Shown: positions 61,297 to 61,368 of the stretch, piece after piece
Numbering within the stretch: the stretch's first letter is position 1
How the letters are laid out: every line of letters starts with the position of its first letter
Notes under the pieces: model-generated
Seen by the model: only the letters and a program-made list of their open reading frames with translations
What the model was told of the DNA's origin: nothing
Databases searched by the model: none
Source: a virus
Length of the DNA stretch: 64,000 bases
Direction: 5' to 3' (one strand)
IMG/VR virus record: IMGVR_UViG_3300031555_003080
Span: 49,285-113,284 of that record
Translations under genes and position numbers: made by a program

Positions 61297-61368
61297 TGGT
61301 TCCAAAGAGATTTGAACTCTTATCTCCACCTTTGAAGGGTGGCGTCTTACCATTTGACCATAAAAACC
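61297..61368 (-). tRNA. tRNA with anticodon TCA (reads UGA and UGG); Trp-like, type I
   Basis: GGTTTTT AT GGTC AAATGGTAA GAC G CCACC CTTCAAA GGTGG AGATA AGAG TTCAAAT CTCTT TGGAACC A. Loop C-U-UCA-A-A differs by one base from the CTCCAAA of tRNA-Trp; CCA not encoded. Confidence 0.65.

Follow-up and report, generated by a model that had tools for sequence, protein, structure and literature searches.

The window analyzed here, a 64,000-nt stretch of viral DNA, carries all of its genes on the minus strand, and minus-strand open reading frames (ORFs) read with the standard code cover 84% of its length. Pfam scans identified genes for replication and nucleotide metabolism (gyrase A/B, an NAD-dependent ligase, ThyA, DHFR, and RNase H), as well as an NAD-salvage cluster, an RNA-repair set with a Thg1-like enzyme, and an SLH-domain protein. 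The window also holds a tRNA array (Table 1) whose genes cover 19 amino acids, all but Trp, and additionally supply the anticodons CUA and UCA. The subject of this analysis is the gene with the UCA anticodon, which is of the opal-suppressor type. ARAGORN places a 74-nt tRNA at minus-strand positions 61296-61369 and reads its anticodon as tca, and the Rfam tRNA model matches 61297-61367 with 61.7 bits (E ~1e-11), a score in the upper half of those obtained for the array tRNAs. The initial annotation had described a type I tRNA with a UCA anticodon and the loop CTTCAAA at this position, and both predictions bear this out. The same annotation did not register that the gene lies on the minus strand, overlooked the amber tRNA(CUA) elsewhere in the array, and counted ~38 window tRNAs where ARAGORN finds 37.

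Table 1. Features of the 64,000-nt window referred to in the text.
Feature	Position	Strand	Description
NAD-dependent DNA ligase (ligA)	5474-7456	minus	Pfam; TGA stop, TAA 12 codons later
RNA/tRNA repair loci	20638-21144, 26588-27445, 28802-29251, 34047-35456, 36401-37225, 39668-40498	minus	PNK-like kinase, Thg1-like 3'-5' nucleotidyltransferase, YqeY/GatB-like domain protein, RNA ligase, RNase T-like exonuclease, RlaP-like nucleotidyltransferase
NAD cluster	22436-30655	minus	NADAR, NAD synthase, Macro-like, NAMPT, PRPP-synthetase-like, and nicotinamidase-like genes
Major-vault-protein-like gene	30761-33202	minus	Shoulder and repeat domains
RNA ligase	34047-35456	minus	Pfam; TGA stop, second TGA 6 codons later
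DUF2828/DUF7788 protein	45507-47072	minus	
tRNA array	48835-63895	minus	37 genes (ARAGORN, Rfam) among small ORFs and homing-endonuclease-like genes
Amber suppressor tRNA(CUA)	52416-52506	minus	ARAGORN; 91 nt, U1-A72, G73, encoded CCA
Candidate gene with two in-frame TAGs	52515-53189	minus	Translation; 224 codons, directly upstream of tRNA(CUA)
Odd tRNA-like gene	54587-54660	minus	Rfam 34.6 bits
tRNA-Asn(GTT)	60953-61026		No encoded CCA
UCA tRNA	61297-61368	minus	Anticodon UCA, opal-suppressor type
Strain-specific cassette	61297-61556	minus	260 nt; 187-nt spacer plus UCA tRNA
tRNA-Glu(UUC)	61557-61632	minus	ARAGORN; immediately upstream of the cassette; possible parent of the UCA tRNA
tRNA-Glu(CUC)	61711-61785	minus	ARAGORN; 69% identical to the UCA tRNA
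tRNA-Pro(CGG)	62869-62939		No encoded CCA
Repeated ~60-nt intergenic element	62125-62061, 55679-55624, 53863-53812, 51685-51625, 50141-50079, 47192-47129, 26573-26524, 21458-21403		Shared with relatives

Several minor features of the array are recorded here. The leader in front of most of its tRNAs ends in AT(A)T, and a Pro(TGG) gene occupies the site of the window's Pro(CGG) in the sister strains L099 and L100. The odd tRNA-like gene has good acceptor, D, and T arms and a G73 followed by CCA, along with a noncanonical anticodon arm, to which ARAGORN assigns an anticodon of 2 bases; a sister strain (L093 4717-4790) has the same gene with 99% conservation, and another odd tRNA is found in the relatives' arrays (L075 3977-4051). 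One copy of the ~60-nt intergenic element, at 62111-62083, fits a sigma-70-type promoter (TTGATT-17-TATAAT with an upstream TG).

The minus-strand RNA of the UCA tRNA gene (GGUUUUUAUGGUCAAAUGGUAAGACGCCACCCUUCAAAGGUGGAGAUAAGAGUUCAAAUCUCUUUGGAACCA) has a 7-nt anticodon loop, CUUCAAA, and a 5-nt variable loop typical of type I tRNAs. Its anticodon and T arms are perfect, and its T and D loops are canonical. At the 3' end, the discriminator A73 is followed by AAU where CCA would stand; CCA is encoded in 34 of the 37 array tRNAs, the other two exceptions being Asn(GTT) and Pro(CGG). In the canonical register, with the 5' end at G61367, the acceptor pairs are G-C, UxC, U-A, U-A, U.G, U.G, and A-U, a weak, A/U-rich stem with a U2xC71 mismatch and two U.G pairs. 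The same register gives a perfect 7-bp stem in a homologous tRNA with the anticodon UUA from a relative (L092). The minimum-energy cloverleaf (-15.8 kcal/mol) is slipped by one base, starting at G61368; here the acceptor forms six contiguous pairs with one U bulged out, and 4 nt connect it to the D-stem. This leaves the acceptor register ambiguous; the first base is G1 (or U1). This energy is no better than that of shuffled sequences and compares with -27.6 and -24.7 kcal/mol for the neighboring tRNA-Glu genes. A weak terminator-like hairpin lies directly upstream. Given the slipped or weak acceptor, the lack of an encoded CCA, and the upstream hairpin, the gene looks usable yet sub-optimal.

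The same features raise the question of whether the gene is a nonfunctional relic, that is, a decaying duplicate of a neighboring tRNA gene that matches a stop codon by chance and is not usefully processed or charged. The poor acceptor in either register, the fold energy, the missing CCA, and the hairpin would all be expected of such a relic, as would the dispensability of the gene in sister strains (see below). In addition, exact and degenerate DNA searches of IMG/VR, JGI metagenome contigs, and GTDB genomes returned no homologue with a UCA anticodon, and a 17-mer from the gene gave only chance matches in IMG/VR. Set against this are the Rfam score, the perfect anticodon and T arms with their canonical T and D loops, and the compensatory nature, in two stems, of what separates the gene from its UUA homologue. 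Acceptor changes that look compensatory likewise suggest selection for folding and hence some function. We therefore regard decay without function as doubtful, if still a serious contender.

No tRNA with the anticodon CCA was found among the 37 window tRNAs. Contigs that come from the same sample and are identical to the window extend the array by one further tRNA, Asn-GTT, just past the window end; in L100, a relative with 97.7% identity, this Asn-GTT tRNA has an HNH gene on its upstream side. Trp(CCA) is thus missing from the entire main array. The absence of Trp(CCA) noted in the initial annotation holds for this array, and the UCA anticodon would, as also proposed there, be expected to pair with UGA and, by wobble, with UGG.

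The description of the gene as a Trp-type tRNA is another matter. Bacterial tRNA-Trp has the anticodon CCA, or UCA in Mollicutes, and the U34 version reads both UGA and UGG in code-4 bacteria. The UCA tRNA shares C35 and A36 with bacterial tRNA-Trp; of the further hallmarks of the bacterial type (G73, A1-U72, and the loop CUCCAAAA), it has none, its own loop being CUUCAAAG. Trp(CCA) genes are present in three clade relatives (L075 4338-4411, L091 4221-4294, and L092 9470-9542), and all three combine A1-U72, G73, an encoded CCA, and the loop CUCCAAAA. With 55-58% identity, these tRNAs are among the isotypes least similar to the UCA tRNA, and this, together with A73 and the missing CCA, contradicts the Trp-type label. 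ARAGORN's own label, tRNA-Sec, reflects only a common UCA anticodon: unlike tRNA-Sec, which has a long variable arm, a 6-bp D-stem, an 8/5 acceptor/T stack, and G73, the UCA tRNA has a 5-nt variable loop, a 3-4 bp D-stem, and A73. With regard to charging, TrpRS recognizes the anticodon chiefly through C35 and A36, and A73 argues against good recognition by bacterial TrpRS. The discriminator is not decisive against Trp, because the Jade phage HF2 has a tRNA(UCA) that likewise carries A73, and a TrpRS encoded by a phage charges this tRNA with Trp (PMC12636597).

Comparison with ~500 clade tRNAs pointed elsewhere. The nearest is the L092 tRNA(UUA), which is 73% identical overall and ~80% identical over the span that begins with the D-arm and ends with the variable loop; these two elements are held in common, and the differences are compensatory in the D and anticodon stems. 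Glu tRNAs are 66-69% identical to the UCA tRNA, with the adjacent tRNA-Glu(UUC) at 66%. The UCA tRNA shares G1-C72, A7-U66, and A73 with the array tRNA-Glu genes and the UUA tRNA, and in the alignment with tRNA-Glu(UUC) the common positions are G1, A7-U66, the 3'-strand positions 66-68, 70, and 72, and A73. The D-arm of tRNA-Glu(CUC), GUCAAGUGGUCAAGAC, is close to that of the UCA tRNA, GUCAAAUGGUAAGAC, and the anticodon stem and flanking bases are those of the L075 tRNA-Glu(UUC). The anticodon loops form a one-step series, from CUUUCAA in Glu through CUUUAAA in the UUA tRNA to CUUCAAA in the UCA tRNA, and in the window the UCA tRNA directly follows the Glu(CUC)/Glu(UUC) pair. Because other isotypes reach 0.67-0.70 identity, so that the Glu similarity is only slightly above background, a tRNA-Glu ancestry is plausible on these alignments but not proven. 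Relative to tRNA-Glu, the UCA tRNA is changed at positions 35 and 36, its acceptor is full of C-to-U changes, and it has no encoded CCA; with 35 and 36 changed, recognition by GluRS, which involves U35, has probably been lost. A 13-nt match between the UCA tRNA region and the L080 Glu leader plus start raised the idea that the 5' strand derives from a tRNA-Glu leader after an 8-nt deletion, a possibility that sits uneasily with the simpler canonical alignment to tRNA-Glu and the L092 UUA tRNA. The L092 tRNA(UUA) itself (5402-5474) carries an ochre anticodon, although the clade mostly uses TAA to end its genes, and it can form an 8-bp acceptor stem.

Related loci place the phage, as judged from sequence, in a clade of ~200 kb gut jumbo phages in a lineage that has reassigned TAG, not TGA. 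One relative (L072) has a single 509-codon gene with nine in-frame TAGs that ends in TAA, and in several relative loci reading TAG as sense lifts long-ORF coverage from 0.3-0.5 to ~0.9, whereas reading TGA as sense does not. In-frame stops were counted with a best-frame filter, since alignable off-frame ORFs swamp unfiltered counts. Across the clade loci, 711 in-frame TAG sites lie inside conserved alignments, and their partner residues are mostly Q, then E and K. The 115 in-frame TGA sites lie mostly at other stops or ORF edges, with W as the partner at only 5. Nineteen tRNA(CUA) genes were found in the clade loci, so that this tRNA is common across the clade, and TAG ends only 4 window ORFs, three of which overlap tRNA genes. 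The features of a code-15 clade are thus all present (tRNA(CUA), in-frame TAG in conserved genes, and a TAG hardly used as terminator), and TAG serves the clade as a Gln-like sense codon. Because the ~200 kb size, the host type, the sample type, the low fraction of recoded genes, and the TAG reassignment fit, we infer that the clade is Sapphire or Jade in the scheme of Borges et al.

The tRNA(CUA) of the window has an orthologue in L075 (11158-11248) with compensatory acceptor changes, and it is the code-change tRNA of the clade. Directly upstream of it lies the candidate gene interrupted by two TAGs, whose three TAG-separated segments have codon-usage log-odds of 0.21, 0.54, and 0.14, with negative values in the other frames; the fetched loci contained no homologue of this gene, and neither Pfam nor PHROGs gave a confident match. 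Another candidate in-frame TAG, at 21148-21150, was discarded after the upstream segment proved to code in another frame. In the tRNA(CUA), the variable arm is a hairpin of 21 nt and the U1-A72/G73 end is Gln-like; an arm of this length is unusual for a Gln-type suppressor tRNA. A 91-nt tRNA(CUA) is also present at L091 5762-5852, and other clade members have ordinary CUA tRNAs of 72-76 nt.

TGA, by comparison, terminates 20 of the 89 window ORFs (~22%), several of them as ATGA stop/start overlaps. For window ORFs of at least 80 codons, its share of TAA+TGA stops is 0.20; across 60 relative loci that lack a UCA tRNA, the median share is 0.24. Where window genes end in TGA, their orthologues terminate no more than a few codons away from that point, on either TAA or TGA, and the codons between a TGA stop and the next stop (218 pooled) score as noncoding (-0.22), like those after TAA (-0.26). 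TGG usage is normal, at 12.4 per 1000 codons. No in-frame TGA sense codon was seen in the 64-kb window; the sole TGA joining two long segments, at 42292-42294, overlaps a radical-SAM gene in another frame and was rejected as a candidate. The initial annotation had pointed out that ligA and the RNA ligase end in TGA and that each has another in-frame stop shortly afterwards. The stops and their distances are as it reported (Table 1), but nothing can be learned from these backup stops, as the next stop is just as near after TAA in this AT-rich sequence. The C terminus of the RNA ligase is conserved, its orthologues in 20 relatives stopping at offsets of -9 to +2 codons on TAA or TGA, and the TGA ends of both genes are genuine stops. 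As an aside, the window ligA is intact, unlike its orthologues at L106 2909-5537 and L110 2543-5171, which are split by a GIY-YIG endonuclease gene into 381 and 277 residues.

In light of the share of TGA stops, the conserved C termini, and the noncoding readthrough, the hint of TGA recoding does not hold for the readable sequence. TGA is an ordinary terminator throughout that sequence. Look-ups from both window ends reached replication genes and the array end only, and the argument against TGA use in the late genes of this strain is indirect. Because the early genes of the window are translated on host machinery, the host would itself have to read TGA as stop.

These data bear directly on the proposal that the UCA tRNA is the phage's only Trp tRNA, decoding both UGG and UGA, and that TGA is translated as Trp (code 4) in the phage or its host, if not everywhere then in late genes. 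The UCA anticodon, an array that supplies every amino acid but Trp, and the lack of Trp(CCA) are what this proposal predicts. It also has precedents, since TGA-recoded gut phages of the related Jade and Agate jumbo-phage clades carry a suppressor tRNA(UCA), and recoded codons concentrate in structural and lysis genes, here beyond the readable sequence (Borges et al. preprint). The phages HF2 and AP1 have a tRNA-Trp(UCA), and an enzyme like the phage TrpRS documented to charge an A73 tRNA(UCA) with Trp could lie outside the window (PMC12636597). The window resembles such systems in having a type I tRNA with a UCA anticodon, and an A73 as in HF2, in the standard-code part of a large gut phage with Firmicute-type hosts. 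Unlike code-4 phages, however, it has no in-frame TGA in 64 kb, no depletion of TGA stops relative to relatives, no loss of C-terminal conservation, and no coding signal after TGA, and Pfam scans of 60 window ORFs found no TrpRS or RF1. Moreover, the sense codon of the clade is TAG, and the UCA tRNA both differs from the clade's Trp tRNAs and does not occur in contigs whose flanks are 97-99.5% identical. We consider the proposal highly unlikely.

The last of these observations comes from same-strain and sister-strain contigs, which were retrieved by exact-protein look-ups. The cassette containing the UCA tRNA lies between tRNA-Glu(UUC) and the conserved flank TTTAAGACGG... and is 100% identical, as is the whole region, in L101 (JGI 3300032167, the source sample of the window) and L102 (JGI 3300029705). 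It is absent from four contigs whose flanks are 99.5% (L105), 98.9% (L103 and L104), and 97.4% (L094) identical to the window, all of which have a 74-nt structured insert instead. At the same site, L099 has ~25 nt and the more distant L080 has 0 nt. Megablast alignments of related contigs are interrupted at two sharp points, 61557, where tRNA-Glu(UUC) ends, and 61296, the base after the UCA tRNA, indicating that the variable unit is the 260-nt cassette of spacer plus tRNA. The UCA tRNA is therefore dispensable among strains with 97-99.5% identity in the flanks, and the cassette appears, from these alignments, to be recent. The cassette-less contigs jointly span the array from its first tRNA, Asn-GTT, to tRNA-Tyr and have no Trp(CCA) either. 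The absence of Trp(CCA) is thus a trait of the sub-lineage that is independent of the cassette, and no Trp(CCA) gene was displaced by the UCA tRNA.

An Rfam scan of the 260-nt cassette and of the alternative 74-nt allele revealed no ribozyme or other RNA adjoining the UCA tRNA, and the supplements of the theta-ribozyme paper contained no match. The 74-nt insert (L094 541-616) directly follows tRNA-Glu(UUC) and forms two strong hairpins (z = -2.5 versus shuffles), with no Rfam match.

A recent cassette would also be compatible with the first step of a second reassignment, in which a working UGA decoder is gained before TGA sense codons accumulate. This is the order of events proposed by Borges et al. 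for Agate phages: in Fig. 3A of their preprint, a standard-code Agate phage that acquired a TGA suppressor tRNA stands beside TGA-recoded relatives, and the same authors describe clades mixing codes 15 and 4. As in that phage, the window has a suppressor-type tRNA without matching recoding that varies among very close relatives. The model of Borges et al. begins with stop depletion, however, and TGA makes up 2.7% of stops in their Agate phage, whereas here it makes up ~22% and TAG is already reassigned. With TGA at 20-24% of stops, an efficient suppressor would extend a fifth of proteins. An incipient second reassignment is accordingly improbable.

On the evidence as a whole, the UCA tRNA is probably an accessory, recently arisen or acquired, weak opal-suppressor-type tRNA in a TAG-recoded phage. 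If it is transcribed, processed (with CCA added), and charged, weak suppression of UGA would be expected, and it could also read UGG. Trp is the amino acid most likely to be attached, given the TrpRS determinants C35 and A36 named above, and efficiency would be low because of A73, the weak acceptor stem, and competition from RF2 at many TGA stops. Such a tRNA is best viewed as a by-product of rapid tRNA gene birth and death in these arrays, and a possible route would be duplication of a tRNA-Glu gene followed by anticodon drift from UUC through UUA to UCA. It would then be tolerated and not required; it would not serve as the phage's Trp tRNA, and the coding strategy of the lineage is independent of it. 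A stronger version of the same history, in which a tRNA-Glu duplicate was reshaped via UUA into a working UGA/UGG reader that fills the empty Trp slot, would amount to the birth of a second stop decoder. Such an origin would open the way to a phage with two reassigned stops, but we give it little credence.

Phage suppressor tRNAs, TAG- and TGA-recoded gut phages, mixed-code clades, and the acquisition of a suppressor without recoding have all been described already. The present case contributes an opal-type tRNA with a non-Trp body that exists as presence/absence alleles in a TAG-recoded phage keeping abundant TGA stops. In phage annotation, a suppressor-type tRNA is often read as the sign of an alternative code; in this case the sign points to the wrong codon, a warning that a tRNA(UCA) by itself is not enough to infer code 4. 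With alleles that are present or absent at 97-99.5% flank identity, the cassette also offers a case for studying the origin and turnover of stop-anticodon tRNAs in phage arrays.

A role other than decoding was considered as well, with the UCA tRNA acting as a decoy or substitute against a host anticodon nuclease or as a substrate of the phage tRNA-repair enzymes. The window encodes a Thg1-like enzyme, an RNA ligase, RlaP, a PNK-like kinase, and phosphatases, and other odd tRNAs occur in the arrays (the tRNA-like gene of Table 1, the odd tRNA of L075, and the UUA tRNA of L092). Nothing ties the repair enzymes to the UCA tRNA, however, and the sister strains keep the repair genes without it, which makes a nondecoding role extremely unlikely. 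The repair loci (Table 1) have three metallophosphatase genes nearby.

Several other genes of the window deserve mention. The NAD cluster resembles phage NAD+ reconstitution pathways that act against NAD-depleting defence systems. A look-up through the aldo-keto-reductase gene retrieved no relatives in IMG/VR. The 896-codon ORF at 30176-32866 on the plus strand was dismissed as merely the antisense of the vault-like gene. The vault-like protein has >6800 metagenomic homologues, many of them 78-98% identical and located on 190-201 kb contigs from human, pig, and other gut samples; among GenBank phages, it matches only 462-735 kb "huge phages," at ~40% identity.
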